10,294 bases of DNA, taken from NCBI GenBank assembly GCA_045862955.1, contig BTVI01000069.1, positions 1 through 10,294 of the forward strand. Reading direction: 5' to 3'. How positions within the stretch are numbered: position 1 is the stretch's first letter; the number at the start of each line of letters is the position of its first letter. The notes under the pieces are model-generated. The model saw only the letters and a program-made list of their open reading frames with translations, did no database searches and had not been told where the DNA came from. The DNA comes from Fimbriimonadales bacterium. Lineage in GTDB: Bacteria > Armatimonadota > Fimbriimonadia > Fimbriimonadales > JABRVX01. The position numbers and the translations under genes were made by a program. Below are positions 1,055 to 10,294 of this stretch, in pieces.

Positions 1055-2752
1055 CTAGAAGCGTATTCCTAGGCTGGCTTTGGCTTCGTACTCTCTCCGG
1101 TCCCTCATCAGCGAGCCGTGGTCGTAATAGTCCTTCATCCGCCCCTCCAGCGAGAGATGGAAGGAGCCACGCGCACTGTGAAAGCCGATGCCGTAGGACC
1201 GATACCCGGTAAGCGAATCGGCGAAAAGCCCCTCTTCCGCGTAGAGCAACCGGAACGAAGTCGAGCGACTGAAGAAGACGCCGCTCTGGAGCTCGAGCTT
1301 TCGCCGTTCTGCCGCGCCGCCGAACGGCGCGCTCTCCGCGTAGCTGCCGCCCACCATCAGCGAGCCTAACGTCAAGTCGACTCCAGCGGCGCGTCGGCGC
1401 ACTTCTTCCGGCACGCCCATCTTGTCTTCCGGTCGGTCCGCGTACTCTGCGCGAAGCGCCAGTGGTTGGATGGGCCGTGAAGTGACTCGCATCACGAGCG
1501 TGTCGATCGGCTCGCCTCCCTCGGGCGAGTCGCGACGCCTGCCCATACCCGTGAACTCGAGCGGGAGTAGCGGCGACCACTTCATCTCCACACCCGCGGC
1601 TTCGGCGAAGGGGGTGCCGCTTCCGGCGAAATAGGTGCCCGCCAGACCGATGCGCGAGACAGGCTGCCACCACAGCTTGGTGTCCGCGGCGGTGGCTTCC
1701 CCTTCGGCTACCGCCGAGGCCTCCAATCGCAGCGAGCGACTCACCCTTGCTTGTCCAGAGACCACCGTTTCGCCTGGGCCTCCGTGGTCGTTAGCGGTGT
1801 GCGAAGCTGCGAGCGAAGCGACCGGATCGGCAGCTTCGAAGCGCACCCGTGTCTTGCCGCCCGCACCCATCTCGCCGAGCCAGTCCACGCCAAACGTAAT
1901 CGGCTGGTAGGGAGTATAAGTCAGCCCGAGCCGGTCCTGCGTCCGCGTGCGTCCGCCATCGCTGCTCACTCCGCGCGAGGCCGCGAACGAGAGCTTCGGG
2001 TCGACCATGATGTCGAAGCCTGCACCGTAGGCAGACCGCTGAGCCCCCGTGGTCGTCTCCTCTTCCCAGAACTTCACGAAAGCGGAGCCGCGGCTGCCTC
2101 TGGCGCGCCAGTCTGCGGATACCACGTCGGTACCAGCCTTCACCCCCATCGCATTCGCGCCGGCGAACTGATCGCCCGCTGAGAAGTACGAAGCCTTGAC
2201 CGTGCCGCCGAGCAGCCCACCGTCCACTCCCATCTGCAGAAGGCGCGATCCCGGGGCAGAGATGTCTCTCTCGGAGAAGTAGTAGCCAGAGGTCCAACGC
2301 CACCCGCCTGTCGTGCGGTACGAGCCTCGCAATCCCAGAAAGCCGGCGAGGTCATCCCGCATCTGTGCAACGAGTCCCAGCCGAGCAGTGCCTGTGGATA
2401 GGAAGTCCGCTTCCAGCGGCACCAACGTGCGTCCCGATTGGCGCGAAGACCGGCCCCTGGCGATCTCGTACTCCACTTCTGCGGTCTCGCCGGGAGCCAG
2501 CGGAGGCTCGATGCGAATGGTGCCGAGATCCGGGTTGAAGAAGTAGTCGCGCCCCGCGACCAGCAAGAGCCCTCCTCGTCGCACTCGCTCGCTGCCAGCC
2601 ACGATACCTTGCCACTGCAGCTTCGGCATGGCCATGCCCGCTTCGCCGACGAGCATCTCCGACACTCGCTCGGTCTGCGCGAGAGCGCCGAGCGAAAGCG
2701 TCAGCACCCAGGTTGTCGCCAGAGCGGCGCGCATCGCTCCGACACCCGTCAC
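1055..2752 (-). CDS. Predicted outer-membrane beta-barrel protein, hypothetical (565 aa)
   Basis: GTG start with GGAGG 6 nt upstream (alternative ATG at 2734). Signal peptide ends ALA|Q. Amphipathic Gly/aromatic-rich strands run throughout, and the C-terminus ASLGIRF ends in Phe as in BAM substrates. Confidence 0.7.
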   Translation of the reverse strand: MTGVGAMRAALATTWVLTLSLGALAQTERVSEMLVGEAGMAMPKLQWQGIVAGSERVRRGGLLLVAGRDYFFNPDLGTIRIEPPLAPGETAEVEYEIARGRSSRQSGRTLVPLEADFLSTGTARLGLVAQMRDDLAGFLGLRGSYRTTGGWRWTSGYYFSERDISAPGSRLLQMGVDGGLLGGTVKASYFSAGDQFAGANAMGVKAGTDVVSADWRARGSRGSAFVKFWEEETTTGAQRSAYGAGFDIMVDPKLSFAASRGVSSDGGRTRTQDRLGLTYTPYQPITFGVDWLGEMGAGGKTRVRFEAADPVASLAASHTANDHGGPGETVVSGQARVSRSLRLEASAVAEGEATAADTKLWWQPVSRIGLAGTYFAGSGTPFAEAAGVEMKWSPLLPLEFTGMGRRRDSPEGGEPIDTLVMRVTSRPIQPLALRAEYADRPEDKMGVPEEVRRRAAGVDLTLGSLMVGGSYAESAPFGGAAERRKLELQSGVFFSRSTSFRLLYAEEGLFADSLTGYRSYGIGFHSARGSFHLSLEGRMKDYYDHGSLMRDRREYEAKASLGIRF

Positions 2753-4213: not shown

Positions 4214-4289
4214 GCCCCCGTAGCTCAGGGGATAGAGCAACTGCCTTCTAAGCAGTGGGCCGATGGTTCGAGTCCATCCGGGGGCGCCA
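4214..4289 (+). tRNA. tRNA-Arg (anticodon UCU)
   Basis: Complete 76-nt cloverleaf: acceptor stem GCCCCCG/CGGGGGC, D-arm GCTC/GAGC, anticodon stem ACTGC/GCAGT with loop CTTCTAA (TCT at 4247-4249), T-arm GATGG-TTCGAGT-CCATC, discriminator G and encoded CCA. Confidence 0.97.
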
Positions 4290-4313
4290 TTGTTCGAGTC
4301 TCCTGCCGGGCGA

Positions 4314-4334
4314 CGGCATCCGGGTGCGATGCCG
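4314..4334 (+). other. Stem-loop downstream of the tRNA (possible terminator or processing hairpin)
   Basis: CGGCATC-N7-GATGCCG perfect 7-bp stem, with no clear U-tract. Confidence 0.35.
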
Positions 4335-4373
4335 CGGTATCATGCCAGCATCGTGAGCGAGGGTTTCCTGTTA

Positions 4374-4937
4374 TTGCGGCGCAGCTTTGCTTGGGTGGTG
4401 CTCTGTCTGTTACTCCTTGCCGGATGCGGTGGGGGAGATGCATCGCACGGCTCAGAAGTGTCGGACAGGACGGACGTTTCTGACAGGTCTGAACCCTCCG
4501 GCAAGTCGGAGCGGCCGGCAGCATACAATCCCGCCCGGCGCACCCAACTGGCAGACCTTCCCGTTGCCGAGGTGCGTATCGGAGAACAGGTCATGCCGGT
4601 CTGGATCGCCGCCAACTCGCTCACTCGCGAAGAAGGCATGATGCATCTCACCGATGCCGAAGTTCCCGATGACCACGGCATGCTCTTTGTCTTTCTCGAA
4701 GAAGCGCCACTCAGCTTCTGGATGCGAAACACGCTGATCCCGCTGGATATCGCCTTCCTCGACGCCAAAGGGGAGGTGCTCAACACCGAGCGGATGCAGC
4801 CCCGTGACCCGACACCCATACCCAGTAAAGGGCCGGCCAAGTACGCGCTGGAAGCCAAGGCAGGCACGTTCAAGCGCCTCGGCCTGCGGCCCGGCATGAC
4901 GATTAAGCTCCCGGCCGGCCTCAGCGCGATAGACTAG
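4374..4937 (+). CDS. DUF192-domain lipoprotein
   Basis: Likely TTG start at 4374 with GAGGG upstream (alternative GTG at 4353). Lipoprotein signal MRRSFAWVVLCLLLLAG|C. Hallmark DUF192 motifs REEGMM, GMLFVF, FWMRNTLIPLDIAFLD and YALEAKAG are present. Confidence 0.9.
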   Translation: MRRSFAWVVLCLLLLAGCGGGDASHGSEVSDRTDVSDRSEPSGKSERPAAYNPARRTQLADLPVAEVRIGEQVMPVWIAANSLTREEGMMHLTDAEVPDDHGMLFVFLEEAPLSFWMRNTLIPLDIAFLDAKGEVLNTERMQPRDPTPIPSKGPAKYALEAKAGTFKRLGLRPGMTIKLPAGLSAID

Positions 4938-4964: not shown

Positions 4965-5837
4965 CTATGGGTGGTAAGTGATCACCCGATACGAAACCTC
5001 GACCCATCGCGGCTTGAAGAACCGCGTGTCGTAGGTCGTTCGCTTCGTCCAGTTGCCCTTCGAGTCGTAGGTGGCTTTAAACGTGTGCCGAGTCATCAGT
5101 TGCCCGTCGCCGCGGTAGACCACCAGCTTGGCCAGGTCGCCTTTCGCGTCATAGGTGTAGCGTGTGTTGCTGATCAGCGAGCCATGCCGCCAGGCCTTGT
5201 CCTCGGTGCAGCGGCCGTTGTCATCGTACTGATAGGCGTGCTTCCACACCTGCTTGCCATCGGGGCCGGTGCATGTGATCGTGGCCTCGCGGTCGTTCTG
5301 ATCGTAGGTGTAGGCTACGATCCACGGGGCGCCGCCGCCAGCGGGGGTGATGGTCTCTCGTGTCGGCTTTCCGCGCTCGTTGTACTCGAATGCCGAAGCA
5401 TTGAAAGCGGTCCCGTCTCCACGAGAGCGCTGCACCTCGATCAGCCTGCCGCGGCCATCATAGCGATAGCTCTCTCTACCGGTCAGCTTCTGCGCCGGAG
5501 TTTCGAAAATCGTCTTCTCCGCCACTCGACCGAACTCGTCGAGGGTGCAGACGGTCTTGGAGACGAGGGCTCCACTCGGCAGGAACTTCTCGTCGTCAAC
5601 AGGGACGCCTTGAGGGCTGTAGGTGGTCTTGCGCACAGCCACCCGCTTGCCCTCGACCCACTTGCCCGCCTTCTTGGCAAAGGGTGCCGACTCGGTGATG
5701 ACGACGCGGGGGCGGTTGCGGGGGATGGCTGCCTCCGGGCCCACCGTGGGCTCCGGCGGCTGCCAGCTCGGCTGGGCGAGGGCTGGGGTACCGCTCCATA
5801 CGGCAACCATCGCGAAGATAACGGCGATAGCGGTCAT
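4965..5837 (-). CDS. Exported YD/RHS-repeat-like protein (290 aa)
   Basis: ATG at 5837 with GGAGGT upstream. Signal peptide ends ALA|Q. About seven repeats of the YxYDxxGrl type (LDEFGRV, YRYDGRGRL, FEYNERGKP, YTYDQNDRE, YQYDDNGRC, YTYDAKGDL, ATYDSKGNW). No RHS core terminator or toxin domain. Confidence 0.8.
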   Translation of the reverse strand: MTAIAVIFAMVAVWSGTPALAQPSWQPPEPTVGPEAAIPRNRPRVVITESAPFAKKAGKWVEGKRVAVRKTTYSPQGVPVDDEKFLPSGALVSKTVCTLDEFGRVAEKTIFETPAQKLTGRESYRYDGRGRLIEVQRSRGDGTAFNASAFEYNERGKPTRETITPAGGGAPWIVAYTYDQNDREATITCTGPDGKQVWKHAYQYDDNGRCTEDKAWRHGSLISNTRYTYDAKGDLAKLVVYRGDGQLMTRHTFKATYDSKGNWTKRTTYDTRFFKPRWVEVSYRVITYHP

Positions 5838-6023
5838 GCAACACCTCCAATCGGGTGCATCTTCGCGCCGACCCCTGATGGGAATGGCGACGAAGGCGCT
5901 TGGCCCGACAGTCGATCTCGAGCGCGACACTACAGATTGTAGGCAAGCGTTGTACACGCGTTAAAAAAACTTCTTCGCGCCGTGCTCGCTGCAGGAGTCA
6001 TTCGTCAGCATACCGAAAATACC

Positions 6024-6135: not shown

Positions 6136-7197
6136 ATGCGTTTTGGCAGACAGAACCCTCGTAGGGGGGTGCCGCTCTTCATTTTTGGTGTTGCGGCGCT
6201 GCTCGTGCTCGTGGTCTTAGCATCTGCACCAGCGTCGTCCGCGCAACAGGACTCTGAGAAGCGGGTGTCCGCCACAGAAGAGGCAGCGCGTAAGAAGGCG
6301 TTGGAGCAGGACCGCCCCGGACCCGATGCCGAACCGCTCGGGAGCGAAGCGTGCGAGATGTGCCACGAGGAAGTCGTGAAGGTGTTCAACGCCTCCCGAC
6401 ACACCATCCACCTTCGTAAGGTGCTGAAGGAAGCCAACCAGGCCTGCGAATACTGCCACGGGCCAGGCAGCGAGCACGTGGACTCTGGTGACGGGACCAA
6501 GATACTGCGCTTCCCACCGCGCTCGTCGGTCACCGTGAAGCGAGCAGCCGAGATCTGCATCAAGTGCCACGCCACCACCCACGACAGCCCGCACTGGCGC
6601 ACCAACGTGCACGCAGCGGCCGATGTTGGCTGCGTCGACTGCCATAGGTTCCACGGCTCGGACGACGACCCGTTCATGCTACAGAAGCCCATTGTCAAAG
6701 TCTCGAACCTCGCGGGCTTCCGCTACGACGCCAAGCACCCAACCACCAGCCAGGCAATCAACGGCGCCTGCCTGAACTGCCACGCCGCACAGGCTGCCCA
6801 AGCGAGGCTTCGATCCCACCATCCCATGCTGGAAGATCGCGTGAGCTGCACCGATTGCCATGAAGTTCACCGCAGCACGAACCCCGCCTTGATGCCGGTC
6901 AACAAGAGCATGTCCGCGGTGTGCACCAAATGCCACACCAACATCCGCGGCCCGTTCGTCTATGAGCACGAACCGACTCGGACGGGTGGCCTCGGCGAGA
7001 GCTGTCTCACCTGCCATCAACCGCACGGCTCGCCGAACCAAAAGCTGCTGGTGACGAACGGACGCGGCGTGTGCATCCAGTGCCACACGGATATCAACGC
7101 GGACGAGGCTCATCGAGGTCGGCCGGGCAGTTGCTGGCGCTCGGGCTGCCACTCGGACATCCACGGCTCCAACAAGAGCCAGTTGTTCTTCCGCTAG
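6136..7197 (+). CDS. DmsE/MtrA/PioA-family periplasmic decaheme c-type cytochrome (353 aa)
   Basis: RBS AAGGAGG at 6124-6130 and a signal peptide. Heme motifs CEMCH, CEYCH, CIKCH, CVDCH, CLNCH, CTDCH, CTKCH, CLTCH, CIQCH plus CWRSGCH. Family signatures CHGPGSEH, SHHP, RGPFVYEHEP, CHQPHGS and CHSDIHGSN. Confidence 0.92.
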   Translation: MRFGRQNPRRGVPLFIFGVAALLVLVVLASAPASSAQQDSEKRVSATEEAARKKALEQDRPGPDAEPLGSEACEMCHEEVVKVFNASRHTIHLRKVLKEANQACEYCHGPGSEHVDSGDGTKILRFPPRSSVTVKRAAEICIKCHATTHDSPHWRTNVHAAADVGCVDCHRFHGSDDDPFMLQKPIVKVSNLAGFRYDAKHPTTSQAINGACLNCHAAQAAQARLRSHHPMLEDRVSCTDCHEVHRSTNPALMPVNKSMSAVCTKCHTNIRGPFVYEHEPTRTGGLGESCLTCHQPHGSPNQKLLVTNGRGVCIQCHTDINADEAHRGRPGSCWRSGCHSDIHGSNKSQLFFR

Positions 7198-7205
7198 GGG
7201 TGAGG

Positions 7206-8945
7206 ATGATGAAGAACGCGAAATGCATGACAGGAGCTGCGGTGCTCACAGCGTTGTTCGTGAACGTTCTCGCCTCGTATGGTCAGGGGGGCGGTGGCGG
7301 TACCGAGGCAACCGGTGAGCAGGAGCGCACCGAGGACAGGCGGGCAATCGGCATCGAGCCCATCCACGTCGAGGTGGTTCCCGCGTTCAGTTCGGTGGAG
7401 TGGAATGGCAACGAGACGAGGCTGTTCCAGTATCGCTCGCTGGCAGAAGGCTTCTACGGAGATATGGTCTTCTTGGCCCTGCGCGACGCTCGCTCCCTGC
7501 GTTCCCTTGGCAGGGGGTACTGGCGCGACTTGGGAGAGCGAGACCAAGCGGGCTTTGTGGAGCTGATCCCGACAACCGAGAGCCACTCGCTGCGCTTCTG
7601 GGCGGACCGGTTCGCCTACTTCCCGGACGCCACACTCGATCTAAGCGACTCCTCCAGGGCTTCCTCTCGGCGCATCTGGCTGCACCTCGCCGGCCTAGGG
7701 GTGGCACCCAGCTTCGATCTGAAGGCGGCCGACCGTGAGTGGGAAGTACGCGACATCGTCCGGCAGAGGCCGGACAGCGGCTACGACTTTCGCACTCTCA
7801 GCTATGACGCCCTACTTAGCTGGCCTTTGTTGCGTGGAGACGTCAAGGTCGGTTGGTACTCCGAGGGTCTGAACGACCGACTGGGAGAGGTCCCGAACGG
7901 GTGGCTGCGGGAGATGACGATCAGCAGCACTCAGTCGCCCGCGCCGAACGTCGGTGCCTCGGTTGCGTACACCGACGTGAGGACGGACCACGAAGGACTG
8001 GGACGAAGCACCGCACAGATATGGCGCTTCGATGCCGGCTGGGCGGCGGCAGCCGACCTGCTCTTCCGAGCCGAGGCGCAGTTCGACACGGTGGATATTC
8101 CTTTCACCCTAAGCCGATATGCGCAGAAGACGAGCCGCGGGGGCGCGGAGGTCTCGTGGCGGCCAAGCCGGGCGGTGTATGTGAATGCAGGCTACACACG
8201 CCACGGCTGGCGACGCGAGATGAAAGGGAGCAACGTGGTTCAGCGTCCCGCCTCCGATGATGCGCATATCTCCGTACGCTTACGAACCGATGCGCTGGGA
8301 CAGTTCCGCCTGCGGTATCGCAACCGCAACCTGATCAACGCTCCCGACTCGGACATACTCCTATCCGATACGACGGCCACGCTGTACTATGACCGTACAC
8401 AGACGTTCATCGGGAGCTGGTCGCGCTCGTTCGGCTACCTCACGAGCTTGTACGCGTCTTATCAGTGGGCAGAGCGACGCAACAATGCTCGAGACTATAC
8501 GCTCCGGTTCAACTCGGTCAACGCGGGAATCAGCACTCAGTTTCTGCCGAACCTGGCGGGTTTCGTAGACTTCCTGTGGGAAGACTGGGGCAGCAACGTC
8601 AGCGGAGAGGATCCGCTCAACACGGGAGAAGACGGAGTGATCGGCGTCGGTTCGGCGGTGCGGCCGTGGTACAGCCAGGGTCAAGTGTGGACCGTCGGAG
8701 CCAACCTGGACCTGACCGAACGAAGCAGTCTGGACGGAACCTTGACCCACTACCTCAGTCGTGGCGGGGAGCGAAACGTTGCCACCTATGTGGGCCTCGA
8801 GTACCGGCAGGAGTTCTTCCGTGACTTCACGCTCGGTCTGGGCTTCCAGCGGCTGGTCTCGTCCGACAGACTGGTAGGCGATTTCGGATACGACGCGAAC
8901 GTTTTTTCTATCACGCTCAAGGGCACGTTCACGAGCGGGCAGTGA
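7206..8945 (+). CDS. MtrB/PioB-like outer-membrane beta-barrel porin associated with the decaheme cytochrome (~579 aa)
   Basis: Starts 8 nt after the decaheme stop (ATG 7206 or 7209). Signal peptide, followed by a GNETRLFQYRSLAEG segment resembling the MtrB-family N-terminal 'F.eYr' motif. Amphipathic beta-strands rich in Y/W/F/R/D, ending in GYDANVFSITLKGTF. Assignment rests mainly on synteny and composition. Confidence 0.75.
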   Translation: MMKNAKCMTGAAVLTALFVNVLASYGQGGGGGTEATGEQERTEDRRAIGIEPIHVEVVPAFSSVEWNGNETRLFQYRSLAEGFYGDMVFLALRDARSLRSLGRGYWRDLGERDQAGFVELIPTTESHSLRFWADRFAYFPDATLDLSDSSRASSRRIWLHLAGLGVAPSFDLKAADREWEVRDIVRQRPDSGYDFRTLSYDALLSWPLLRGDVKVGWYSEGLNDRLGEVPNGWLREMTISSTQSPAPNVGASVAYTDVRTDHEGLGRSTAQIWRFDAGWAAAADLLFRAEAQFDTVDIPFTLSRYAQKTSRGGAEVSWRPSRAVYVNAGYTRHGWRREMKGSNVVQRPASDDAHISVRLRTDALGQFRLRYRNRNLINAPDSDILLSDTTATLYYDRTQTFIGSWSRSFGYLTSLYASYQWAERRNNARDYTLRFNSVNAGISTQFLPNLAGFVDFLWEDWGSNVSGEDPLNTGEDGVIGVGSAVRPWYSQGQVWTVGANLDLTERSSLDGTLTHYLSRGGERNVATYVGLEYRQEFFRDFTLGLGFQRLVSSDRLVGDFGYDANVFSITLKGTFTSGQ

Positions 8946-8979
8946 TGCCGGCCGCTGGGCGCAATTGGGAGGTCGAGAA

Positions 8980-10182
8980 GTGATACGAGGCAAGCAGAGA
9001 TTGGGTATGGCCACAGCTCTTGTACTTTCTAGCACGCTGGGCCTGGTCACGCTGTTCGTTGCCGCTGGCTGTTCGGTCAGCGACCTGGTGTCGGGGTCTA
9101 CCGACGACGCTCCTCCTGGGTCTATCGTGTGGAACGATCCGTCGCCGATACCGTCTCGGAACGTTCCCGACGATGCGACCTACGTTGGCGTCGAGGTGTG
9201 TGCAGCCTGCCATGGTCGCTCGGCCCCGGGTCACCCGGAGGGCATCTATGCCGAGTGGAAGCAGATGGCCCATGCCAAGGATCCCACCAAGCTGGGTGGC
9301 TCTGGAACCATCGACATCTTCACGCGCTTCATCTCGGACGGGTTGGTGCCCAACACGCCATGTGCGATCTGCCACGTAACAGGGGCGCCGGACACCCCCA
9401 ACAATCCCGGATCGGACCGGGGTGGCTTCGACACCAACAAGGATGCACGGAGTGCGCACAACCTGAAGTTTTGGAGCGTTCAGTGCGAGGCGTGCCATGG
9501 TCCCGGGTCGGCTCACGTGGCGAGCGGTGGCAACCGCAACCTGATCAACCGCATCCCGGACTCGAAGGAGACGTGCTGGAAGTGTCACACCGGGTTGCCC
9601 AACACCAAGGGCGTCACGCCAGAGGGCCCGGCAACGGATGACCTAATCGCTCTCTTCAGCTCTTCTCTGGCGCGCGGGCACAATGCGGGGATCATGATTG
9701 CTGGTGCAGGGGGCTACGAGTATCCGGGTGTCGAGTACAAGCACTCCCCGCACACCCGAATCGCCAACACCTGCCAGACCTGCCATGCTCTTGCGACAGG
9801 CAGCAGCCGAAGGTGGAACCACACCTCGACGCTCCCGAAGAAGGAAGTGTGCGCGAAGTGTCATGGCGGCGCGAACAACGCGGCAGACATCGAGCACGTG
9901 GTAGTCAACTCCAGTGGCGAGACAGTGGAAGATATCCAGGAGCACATCGCCGACCTGCTAATCCAACTCGGGGGCTCCACGTCCTCTGGTGCGCCGGACA
10001 ATAACGCGAACGGTGGTGCGCTTCGTGCGTACCGAGATACCTATGGACAGGACGCGAAGTACCGAAGGGCGCGATGGAACTACTCGCTGGTCATCAATGA
10101 CGGAAGTCTCGGCGTACACAACTACGATTATGCCAAGCAGCTGCTCTTGAGCTCGCTGGCTGACCTGGCAGCCGGTCCATAG
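8980..10182 (+). CDS. Hexaheme c-type cytochrome lipoprotein (400 aa)
   Basis: GTG at 8980 with GGAGGT 6 nt upstream. Lipoprotein signal ending VAAG|C (Cys codon 9070-9072). Six CxxCH motifs: CAACH, CAICH, CEACH, CWKCH, CQTCH, CAKCH. N-terminal YVGxxxCxxCH..W...H of c554/c552-like type, and C-terminal ARWNYSLVINDGSLGVHNYDYAKQLL. Confidence 0.88.
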   Translation: MIRGKQRLGMATALVLSSTLGLVTLFVAAGCSVSDLVSGSTDDAPPGSIVWNDPSPIPSRNVPDDATYVGVEVCAACHGRSAPGHPEGIYAEWKQMAHAKDPTKLGGSGTIDIFTRFISDGLVPNTPCAICHVTGAPDTPNNPGSDRGGFDTNKDARSAHNLKFWSVQCEACHGPGSAHVASGGNRNLINRIPDSKETCWKCHTGLPNTKGVTPEGPATDDLIALFSSSLARGHNAGIMIAGAGGYEYPGVEYKHSPHTRIANTCQTCHALATGSSRRWNHTSTLPKKEVCAKCHGGANNAADIEHVVVNSSGETVEDIQEHIADLLIQLGGSTSSGAPDNNANGGALRAYRDTYGQDAKYRRARWNYSLVINDGSLGVHNYDYAKQLLLSSLADLAAGP

Positions 10183-10214: not shown

Positions 10215-10294
10215 ACGCTTCCGGCGCCGGGGGGCCCCCGCGGGCGGGGCCCCCCCCACCCCCACAAAACCGCCCCGGGGGGGAAGGGAAAAAA

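Follow-up and report, generated by a model that had tools for sequence, protein, structure and literature searches.

A conserved gene trio of a Fimbriimonadia bacterium encodes an MtrA-family decahaem cytochrome, a predicted MtrB-like barrel, and a hexahaem relative of OcwA

Cultured Armatimonadota are aerobic heterotrophs. In the MtrCAB system of Shewanella (6R2Q), electrons have a path across the outer membrane in which the decahaem cytochrome MtrA sits inside the 26-strand barrel MtrB, and the decahaem lipoprotein MtrC lies on the surface. A cluster of three genes from an uncultured Armatimonadota bacterium, whose source is metagenomes of sludge and bioreactors, raises the question of whether a similar conduit exists in this phylum and, if so, which protein takes the position of MtrC. 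The window, that is, the whole stretch of DNA analysed in this work (10,294 nt), is an entire contig. The 3′ end of the cluster lies 112 nt from the contig end, and the region downstream of the trio is visible solely in relatives.

The initial annotation described three co-oriented genes with gaps of 8 and 34 nt. The open reading frames and start-codon candidates bear this out (Table 1): the shorter gap lies between the stop codon of gene 1 and gene 2, and the longer one between genes 2 and 3. When read from its most likely start, gene 3 has the same length as the database copy P0001. Because the HMM E-values were 4.5e-56 for gene 1 and 1.2e-13 for gene 3, the haem-protein matches of the trio are not due to chance. 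Contigs from the RNA libraries of four studies, which are short, mostly at least 99% identical, and uncontrolled for DNA carry-over, overlay parts of all three genes; none of the RNA-library contigs from these four studies spans a gene junction. The cluster resembles MtrCAB in being a compact three-gene unit with a multihaem lipoprotein as the third partner, but its order is A-B-X, compared with C-A-B in Shewanella as given in an excerpt of PMC12133095.

Table 1. Coordinates of the three genes and of two sites within them (positions in the window).
Feature	Position	Strand	Description
Gene 1	6136-7197	+	353 aa; from the ORF list, with AAGGAGG 5 nt upstream of ATG
CX4CH site of gene 1	7132-7152	+	CWRSGCH, residues 333-339; tenth (last) haem site
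Gene 2	7206-8945	+	579 aa; ATG at 7206 is the most likely start
Gene 3	8980-10182	+	400 aa; GTG at 8980 is the most likely start, with GGGAGG 6 nt upstream
Lipobox Cys of gene 3	9070-9072	+	VAAG-C, residue 31 of the 400-aa form

Judged by its sequence, gene 1 encodes a decahaem member of the MtrA/DmsE family of cytochromes; the product carries a Sec signal peptide and is predicted to be periplasmic. The TIGR03508 profile matched it over positions 1-257 of 258 (E = 4.5e-56) with a score of 190.2 bits, which is 2 bits under the curated cut-off (192.2), and we treat the protein as a divergent member of this family. The MtrA chain in the PDB (6r2q_A) is homologous to it (E = 1.5e-32), with both halves of the protein aligned and all ten haem sites co-linear. 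These two matches bear out the MtrA-like decahaem that was initially annotated. A homologue that is 56% identical to gene 1 (P0057) carries the JGI name DmsE family. Nine of the ten haem sites are CXXCH motifs, and the tenth differs from that of MtrCAB in being a CX4CH motif: the HMMER alignment pairs CWRSGCH of gene 1 with CLNCH, which binds the tenth haem in MtrA of Shewanella. Among the matches listed, 48 of 120 homologues have the CX4CH variant at this site, including the closest 40. The 16 haem sites previously counted for the trio stand if this variant is included, but not if only CXXCH motifs are taken (nine in gene 1 and six in gene 3).

Adjoining gene 1, 8 nt downstream, is the gene for a large predicted outer-membrane barrel. 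The product of gene 2 carries a signal peptide, and its AF2 model (mean pLDDT 87.2, pTM 0.78) has 26 beta strands, which equals the strand count of MtrB. In the Foldseek search of this model, MtrB (6r2q_B) came first (E = 2.2e-11, TM 0.68/0.61), with 22-strand receptors behind it. In VIA-align, 499 residues were superposed on 6r2q_B with Z 25.3 and rmsd 3.0, and the next entry reached Z 16.4. The sequence models gave a different picture, and the barrel differs from that of MtrCAB in being missed by them. PF11854 scored 17.6 bits (cut-off 23) and TIGR03509 scored 12.9 bits (cut-off 240.05); since both are below their cut-offs, membership in the MtrB/PioB families by sequence models was ruled out. 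PF11854 was touched, weakly, by four of the 28 aligned relatives of gene 2, and a profile of the gene 2 family did not retrieve MtrB from the PDB. Gene 2 is accordingly described here as an outer-membrane barrel that is predicted to be MtrB-like in fold; the large MtrB-like barrel proposed for the middle gene is borne out by the 26-strand model and its best match.

Gene 3 had been described as an unrelated hexahaem lipoprotein. It contains six CXXCH motifs, each invariant across an alignment of 15 family sequences, but the protein is not unrelated to known cytochromes. The Pfam model for MtrC/MtrF domain II/IV (PF22113) scored 51.4 bits (cut-off 30), and gene 3 is homologous to OcwA, OmhA, and a group of nonahaem lipoproteins. 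OcwA of Thermincola potens (6I5B) and OmhA of Carboxydothermus ferrireducens (6QVM) are terminal reductases that Gram-positive metal reducers carry on their surface. With the single sequence of gene 3, the E-values were 2.8e-9 for OcwA and 3.5e-5 for OmhA; with the A3 profile of the gene 3 family, which takes in nonahaem relatives, they were 3.7e-32 and 1.1e-21, respectively. In a wide fold search, the top seven entries were all OcwA, NrfA, OmhA, ONR, or MccA (Z 9.1-11.6; next entry 6.5), the best being OcwA (Z 11.6) and OmhA (Z 10.3). The model of gene 3 is poor as a whole (mean pLDDT 61.2), and its predicted C-terminal helical bundle (residues 307-322, 337-346, 350-365, and 373-388) has pLDDT values of 83-95 and aligns with the OcwA and NrfA chains.

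Gene 3 aligns end to end with the nonahaem lipoproteins of ~400 aa, which adjoin MtrA homologues in other phyla. Missing from it is a block of ~65 residues with three CXXCH motifs that correspond to haems 5-7 of these relatives. By these alignments, gene 3 belongs to the OcwA/NrfA/c554 superfamily and has lost a three-haem block relative to its nonahaem relatives. Its six haems set it apart from OcwA (nine) and OmhA (eleven), and it was rejected as an OcwA orthologue on the basis of its six CXXCH motifs versus nine; it is instead a pruned relative. An OmcA/MtrC decahaem was also ruled out, given six CXXCH motifs rather than ten and a TIGR03507 score of 23.1 bits versus a cut-off of 209.3. Thus, the partner differs from MtrC in both haem number (six versus ten) and lineage.

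The A3 profile also finds NrfA and octahaem nitrite reductases (E ~1e-10). These matches are consistent with a reading in which gene 3 encodes an NrfA/OcwA-like haem enzyme that catalyses the turnover of a soluble oxidant, for instance nitrite or hydroxylamine. The MtrAB-like core would feed electrons to this enzyme outside the cell, as DmsEF does for DmsAB. Outside the motifs, gene 3 has five invariant His for its six haems, and a sixth His is conserved in 90% or more of the sequences. As described in a portion of PMC6703420, two of the haems of OcwA are five-coordinate and have distal His-His motifs, and the protein reduces nitrite and hydroxylamine in vitro. Nevertheless, we consider a catalytic gene 3 very improbable. 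The CXXCK motif is absent, the near-invariant H151 could complete bis-His ligation of the six haems, and in the A3 alignment the deleted block takes out the position of the second open-site haem of OcwA (haem 5, following the same portion of PMC6703420).

The distribution of the trio provides further information on its third gene. RpoB places the host in the class Fimbriimonadia, which upholds the tentative assignment to Armatimonadota. Homologues of MtrA are present in 80 of the 301 Armatimonadota genomes sampled, and 17 of 20 inspected loci have the same layout, namely, MtrA followed by a barrel ending in F/Y and then a gene-3-like cytochrome with 7-8 CXXCH motifs. The system is therefore not the odd "hybrid" that it had appeared to be, because trios of MtrA, barrel, and OcwA-like cytochrome are common in the phylum. 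By comparison, the six-haem trio is rare, occurring in all three genomes of family f1 and in one distant genome. The trio is conserved as a unit in these four genomes of two distant lineages, and its flanks differ among G001, G002, and locus L006 (genome G045).

The common trio of the phylum and the trio in the window share their gene order, and in both the MtrA protein has CX4CH as its tenth haem site; the common partner is gene-3-like (phmmer E-values of 1e-7 to 1e-14). However, this partner has ~450-575 aa and 7-8 CXXCH motifs and is ~100 residues longer than gene 3. Neither in the tree of outer cytochromes nor in that of MtrA do the hexahaem trios group within the clade formed by the 7-8-CXXCH trios of the phylum. 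Because the common partner forms a separate, fully supported clade and its MtrA forms a separate clade as well, the trio in the window is not simply derived from the common trio.

The N-terminus of the hexahaem protein reads MIRGKQRLGMATALVLSSTLGLVTLFVAAG-C, with a signal peptide that ends in VAAGC; the lipobox was called by eye. Of the 15 family members in the alignment, the four closest retain the lipobox Cys, and in these four the lipid anchor is followed by a tether of ~35 residues. In the other 11, one of which comes from the L006 trio, the signal peptide lacks this Cys. Because of these 11 members, a lipid anchor is not a general trait of the family, and a periplasmic location is possible. 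In that case, the hexahaem protein would face the periplasm, as an inner-leaflet lipoprotein (soluble in relatives), and would shuttle electrons between inner-membrane enzymes and the decahaem, whose exposed end would be the sole extracellular contact. Small periplasmic carriers shuttle electrons in Mto/Pio-type systems, and we know of no MtoAB or PioAB operon that encodes a large outer multihaem partner. Like the trio, MtoAB of Fe(II)-oxidising Betaproteobacteria and PioAB of Rhodopseudomonas palustris have a homologous core of decahaem and barrel, and these homologues are without MtrC in the excerpt of PMC8805035 that treats them. Moreover, the third gene of such a cluster does not have to code for a surface protein; on contig C36 of the host, its place in a paralogous cluster is taken by a gene for an EB_dh-domain lipoprotein. 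Against a periplasmic hexahaem, its characterised relatives are located on the cell surface (OcwA and OmhA, from parts of PMC6703420 and PMC9250108), the four closest family members combine anchor and tether, and gene 3 follows the barrel, which is the slot of the large 7-8-CXXCH cytochrome in the 17 loci mentioned above. Taken together, we regard the periplasmic location as unlikely.

The reading that we prefer is a surface location. The products of the trio probably form a porin-cytochrome wire that crosses the outer membrane of this Fimbriimonadia bacterium, with the lipoprotein on the surface. By analogy with MtrAB, the decahaem encoded by gene 1 would be threaded through the barrel encoded by gene 2. 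The last haem of the decahaem, bound at the CX4CH motif, would be exposed outside the cell and would pass electrons to the surface-tethered lipoprotein encoded by gene 3. From this lipoprotein, the electrons may move on to Fe(III)/Mn(IV) oxides, humics, electrodes, or other extracellular acceptors. In contrast to OcwA and OmhA on the Gram-positive wall, gene 3 is predicted to be lipid-anchored in a diderm, beside an MtrAB-type core. Genes for cytochrome c maturation were found in the host genome.

For the direction of electron flow, we agree with the initial annotation that it is not readable from the sequence. Contig C20 of the host encodes a seven-CXXCH cytochrome c fused to a cytochrome b561-type domain, as well as a NapC/NirT-like multihaem protein and a 4Fe-4S/NrfD pair. 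We take the fusion and the NapC/NirT-like protein as candidates for Geobacter-type quinol oxidases of the inner membrane (CbcL and ImcH/NapC kinds). RuBisCO was not found in the host genome, which is 97.6% complete. Because of these candidate quinol oxidases, the missing RuBisCO, and the terminal-reductase role (as stated in part of PMC6703420) of OcwA, which among characterised proteins is closest to gene 3, we lean slightly toward outward over inward flow, and hold this less firmly than any other inference made here.

None of these three points is decisive against a conduit that runs inward, in which Fe(II), reduced minerals, or cathodes would supply the respiratory chain with electrons as in MtoAB and PioAB. 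An MtrAB core works either way, and the flow through the homologues MtoAB and PioAB is inward according to the excerpt of PMC8805035, whereas that of the trio may be either. In a section of PMC9671151, an MtoA-annotated gene of an Armatimonadota MAG is grouped nearer to PioA/MtoA. The host genome also encodes a haem-copper oxidase and an NrfA-like gene, the latter recognised from its translation and CXXCK motif alone, and both could be electron sinks. We consider inward flow somewhat unlikely.

In a broader context, these findings suggest, as a tentative proposal, that Armatimonadota may be a major unrecognised reservoir of electron conduits across the outer membrane, with an MtrAB lineage that has a CX4CH exit haem and OcwA-type partners, and with gene 3 as a minimised terminal reductase. 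To our knowledge, OcwA-type cytochromes have so far been characterised solely on Gram-positive metal reducers. If the proposal is true, MtrAB cores of a separate lineage pair with OcwA-type cytochromes rather than with MtrC, and the six-haem gene 3 would be the product of cutting three haems from a nine-haem scaffold with the wire still working. The trio itself probably represents a new variant of the Mtr system, in which a cut-down relative of OcwA takes the place of MtrC.

The window is a complete contig of a 3.36-Mb assembly (completeness 97.6%), and positions 6136-10182 are occupied by three ORFs on the + strand (genes 1-3, together the trio). The 400-aa length of gene 3 equals that of its database copy (P0001), and the gap to gene 2 is then 34 nt. 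Gene 1 contains nine CXXCH motifs and one CX4CH motif, and gene 3 contains six CXXCH. The initial annotation had counted 16 haem sites and called gene 1 a decahaem, which is right provided that the CX4CH site is counted (9 + 1 + 6). The G and C runs at the contig end probably caused the assembly break right after the cluster. Upstream of the trio, the genes for an RHS/YD-repeat protein and a DUF192 protein have the same position in the same-genus genome (G001); neither was found in the portions retrieved from G002, a genome from another genus of the family, or from L006, the trio locus of genome G045. Another gene, set apart from the trio by its orientation and a distance of 3.4 kb, encodes a secreted protein for which Pfam gave no match and NCBIfam only a negligible one (E 0.041, 11 bits). 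This protein looks like a further outer-membrane barrel without a family assignment.

Coordinates of the trio and of other features in the window and in the loci compared
Feature	Sequence	Position	Strand	Remark
Gene 1, MtrA/DmsE-family decahaem	window	6136-7197	+	353 aa; AAGGAGG (strong Shine-Dalgarno) 5 nt before start
CX4CH haem site (CWRSGCH)	window	7132-7152	+	last haem site of gene 1 decahaem
Gene 2, predicted MtrB-like barrel	window	from ATG 7206	+	most likely start; 8 nt past gene 1 stop
Gene 3, hexahaem lipoprotein	window	from GTG 8980	+	most likely start, GGGAGG before it; 400 aa
G and C runs (GGGGGGCCCCC..., CCCCCCCCACCCCC...), A-rich at end	window	10215-10294		final 80 bases
RHS/YD-repeat protein	window	4965-5957	-	330 aa
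DUF192 protein	window	4263-4937	+	
Secreted protein	window	1055-2752	-	565 aa; C-terminus ...LGIRF
Class I cytochrome c protein	L006	9052-10368	+	438 aa; overlaps 3' end of hexahaem gene
Five-CXXCH cytochrome	L110	1135-2115		
Five-CXXCH cytochrome	L113	1208-2224		
Five-CXXCH cytochrome	L120	990-2159		
Five-CXXCH cytochrome	L121	8520-9527		
Second, paralogous cluster	window genome, contig C36	~26885-30914		
Genes of the C36 cluster	L130	2886-3857, 3565-5481, 5491-6918		
Genes of the C20 cluster	window genome, L129	7006-8832, 5525-6943, 3986-4768, 2745-3986	-	

Gene 1 matches the whole profile of the DmsE-family decahaem cytochromes (NCBIfam TIGR03508, E 4.5e-56) with a score of 190.2 bits, the curated cut-off being 192.2, and is also matched by MtrA in the structure of the Shewanella Mtr complex (6R2Q chain A, E 1.5e-32). 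In the HMMER alignment, its CX4CH motif falls on haem site ten of Shewanella MtrA. Of the 120 listed homologues (P0054-P0173), 48 have this form of the last site (C-W-R/Q-x-G/N-C-H), among them the 40 closest; the other 72 have CXXCH. All Armatimonadota MtrAs sampled for the MtrA tree have CX4CH, as do the MtrAs beside nonahaem genes in L014, L042 (labelled Planctomycetota), L025, and L033 (both labelled Verrucomicrobiae). The MtrA of L048 has CXXCH despite adjoining a gene-3-like gene, so the link between CX4CH and partner type is not strict. According to a 2025 preprint, some MtrA homologues carry a Cx3CH motif at haem 1; "Cx4CH" and "heme 10" were not found in its main text.

Gene 2 had been annotated as MtrB-like, and the family models do not recognize it as such: both Pfam MtrB_PioB (17.6 bits, cut-off 23) and TIGR03509 (12.9 bits, cut-off 240) score below threshold. 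The single sequence found no relative in the PDB (best E 0.56), and a profile of 28 relatives found weak TodX/FadL-type matches only and no MtrB. A search of 1.84 billion representative proteins found only 24 relatives of gene 2. Modelled by AlphaFold2 with 28 relatives, gene 2 shows 26 strands, the number given for MtrB (PMC12133095), and the model is of high confidence (mean pLDDT 87.2, pTM 0.78). The top Foldseek match is MtrB (6r2q_B; E 2.2e-11, TM 0.68/0.61), followed by 22-strand TonB-dependent receptors (TM ~0.4-0.5). A second-look alignment with MtrB gave a Z of 25.3 (rmsd 3.0 Å, 499 residues), and the next entry had a Z of 16.4. Because the model has 26 strands and MtrB came first in both fold comparisons, we consider gene 2 to be MtrB-like by predicted fold, yet outside the sequence definition of the MtrB family. 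The large beta-barrel proposed for the middle gene agrees with this model.

The N-terminus of gene 3 consists of a charged N-region, then a hydrophobic core, and then VAAG-C, a motif that we take to be a lipobox. Gene 3, earlier described as unrelated, does have kin among known surface cytochromes: it is homologous to OcwA and OmhA, and it passes the Pfam model for MtrC/MtrF domain II/IV (51.4 vs 30 bits). Against the OmcA/MtrC family model it falls short (23.1 vs 209.3 bits). The best PDB relatives come from Thermincola (OcwA, 6I5B, E 2.8e-9) and Carboxydothermus (OmhA, 6QVM, E 3.5e-5); with a profile including more distant relatives, the two reach E 3.7e-32 and 1.1e-21, respectively. This profile also reaches octahaem and pentahaem nitrite reductases (~1e-10), c554, and MccA, and none of the 23 PDB sequences listed at E <=1 was recognized as MtrC, MtrF, OmcA, or UndA. 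AlphaFold2 modelled gene 3 poorly (mean pLDDT 61.2), and the model gave no Foldseek match at E 0.001 or better. In a fold search of 48,161 PDB representatives, the top seven entries are OcwA, NrfA, OmhA, ONR, and MccA (Z 9.1-11.6), and the eighth falls to Z 6.5. The protein atlas offered leads in the form of generic c554/c7/NrfA-like clusters only. OcwA is a nonahaem terminal reductase of the Gram-positive cell surface, with one c554-like and one NrfA-like module (PMC6703420). A complex prediction for gene 2 (45-579) and gene 3 (40-391) gave a score of 0.00 against a mark of 0.32, which weighs neither way on binding.

The close family of gene 3 comprises 15 relatives at 42-59% identity in a collection of 5.8 billion proteins, and all six CXXCH are invariant across the 15 aligned sequences. 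Its members align over their full length with lipoproteins of ~400 aa, most of which have nine CXXCH, and are without one clean block of ~65 residues that holds three CXXCH (nonahaem sites 5-7). Three of the nonahaem-type genes share a locus with an MtrA-like gene, namely, those in L042 and L036 (both labelled Planctomycetota) and L014 (labelled only "bacterium"). HMMER gives two alignments between gene 3 and OcwA because the two modules of OcwA resemble each other. As this register is ambiguous, the three-haem deletion is stated relative to the ~400-aa nonahaem relatives and not to OcwA. The loss agrees with a superfamily shaped by "grafting and pruning", as has been proposed; hexahaem, lipoprotein, and MtrA are not mentioned in the available passages on this subject (PMC9250108).

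The trio is found in the same order in the same-genus genome (91% identity for gene 3), in the other genus of the family (58%), and in L006 (48%), and its flanks differ in every case. In all, the hexahaem gene lies beside mtrAB homologues in four genomes. Since the trio is kept with differing flanks, the three genes behave as one unit, and chance adjacency is rejected on the same recurrence. The genome holding L006 is labelled as the same phylum (family f10); over an RpoB fragment it shares 64% identity with the window genome, compared with 76% for a same-order genome and 51-56% for three genomes of other or unassigned phyla. In the 438-aa protein of L006, a FixO-like stretch accompanies several domains of the class I cytochrome c type (PF13442, PF00034); this protein may be a fourth cluster member there. 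Unrelated genes take its place in G001 and G002, and the window contig ends before that place.

Among 41 close relatives, the six-haem gene is present in three, all of the window genome's family (f1), and in none of the 38 from the order's other families. Across the phylum, two of the 301 sampled genomes have this gene, and a metagenome scan for hexahaem loci gave, among the matches listed, only distant ones (best 26-39% identity). MtrA homologues are more widespread, occurring in 80 of these 301 genomes. We inspected 20 of the phylum's MtrA loci: in 19, a barrel gene (~525-570 aa, last residue F or Y) precedes one for a cytochrome with 7-8 CXXCH, and the remaining locus has other multihaems. 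The best match of the outer cytochrome among our queries is gene 3 in 17 loci (E 1e-7 to 1e-14) and gene 1 in two. Several Armatimonadota loci, including the four tabulated, have a five-CXXCH cytochrome of ~330-390 aa just upstream of MtrA; the window lacks one. A quick tree built from the outer cytochromes joins the hexahaem clade to nonahaem clades and splits it (SH-aLRT 100) from the 7-8-CXXCH clade of Armatimonadota. In a quick MtrA tree, the MtrAs of hexahaem trios form a clade with a paralogue from the window genome itself (support 95), and the MtrAs of the phylum's 7-8-CXXCH trios form a separate one (support 100). As both trees separate the hexahaem trios, the MtrA core and its outer partner appear to have travelled together.

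The paralogous cluster on contig C36 of the window genome consists of an MtrA paralogue (48% identical, also with CX4CH at the last site), a ~530-aa barrel, and then a lipoprotein in which an ethylbenzene-dehydrogenase-like haem domain (PF09459, 103 bits) replaces the multihaem cytochrome. Within a single organism, the MtrAB-type core apparently accepts more than one kind of outer partner.

By analogy with MtrCAB, the decahaem would be seated in the barrel with its last haem exposed outside the cell, where the tethered hexahaem would take electrons. Edwards et al. are said to have reported in 2020 that haem 10 of MtrA faces MtrC. We hold the core part of this conduit reading to be highly probable and moderately favour a surface role for the hexahaem. 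A role of gene 3 in the periplasm instead of at the cell surface is less likely but a serious rival, as the lipobox Cys is missing in 11 of the 15 aligned family members, including that of the conserved L006 trio. We lean weakly toward outward electron flow because of the C20 cluster, the cytochrome c maturation genes (on contig C20 too), and RuBisCO not being found in this 97.6% complete genome. In the C20 cluster, one gene fuses a seven-CXXCH cytochrome c to a membrane domain of the cytochrome b561 type; the others encode a NapC/NirT-like multihaem, a 4Fe-4S protein, and a membrane protein of the NrfD type. The fusion and the NapC/NirT-like multihaem resemble the Geobacter quinol oxidases CbcL and ImcH, and the C20 proteins are candidate inner-membrane links to the conduit. 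Inward flow is only a little less probable: its sink could be one haem-copper oxidase encoded in this genome or the product of an NrfA-like gene, identified by translated sequence and CXXCK motif alone, and MtoAB and PioAB show that the core can run either way (PMC8805035).

A 631-residue RpoB fragment of the window genome is 97% identical to a protein named Fimbriimonadia bacterium by NCBI, and the other named matches, a minority of the 120 listed, are all Armatimonadota, which confirms the host tentatively proposed before. Near-identical DNA occurs in sludge, bioreactor, and aquatic metagenome runs; part of the window DNA is contained in 20 entries from 12 studies, of which three may be the source. 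Assembled RNA-library contigs from four studies, all short and mostly at least 99% identical, contain pieces of all three genes, and those of run X16 touch all three. No contig spanning the gene junctions was found among these short assembled contigs. These contigs only hint at expression of the trio.

A survey of MtrCAB that demanded MtrC in the cluster reported three phyla, with Armatimonadota not mentioned in its available portion (PMC8805035), and a hot-spring study noted a gene annotated as MtoA in one MAG of Armatimonadota (PMC9671151). In the main-text literature searched, no account turned up of an MtrAB core that has an OcwA-type cytochrome as its partner, or of the six-haem form. The finding is solid, useful, and in principle unsurprising. 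With a barrel below the MtrB model cut-offs and an OcwA-like outer cytochrome, the conduit would escape surveys requiring MtrC, though about a quarter of the sampled Armatimonadota genomes have MtrA homologues. As DNA of this organism recurs in sludge and bioreactor metagenomes from several studies, the organism could play a part there in electron flow linked to iron, humics, or electrodes. The six-haem form is a natural pruning experiment on how far the OcwA/NrfA-type haem scaffold can shrink, and the CX4CH exit haem provides a way to ask how MtrA-type wires pick their outer partners.
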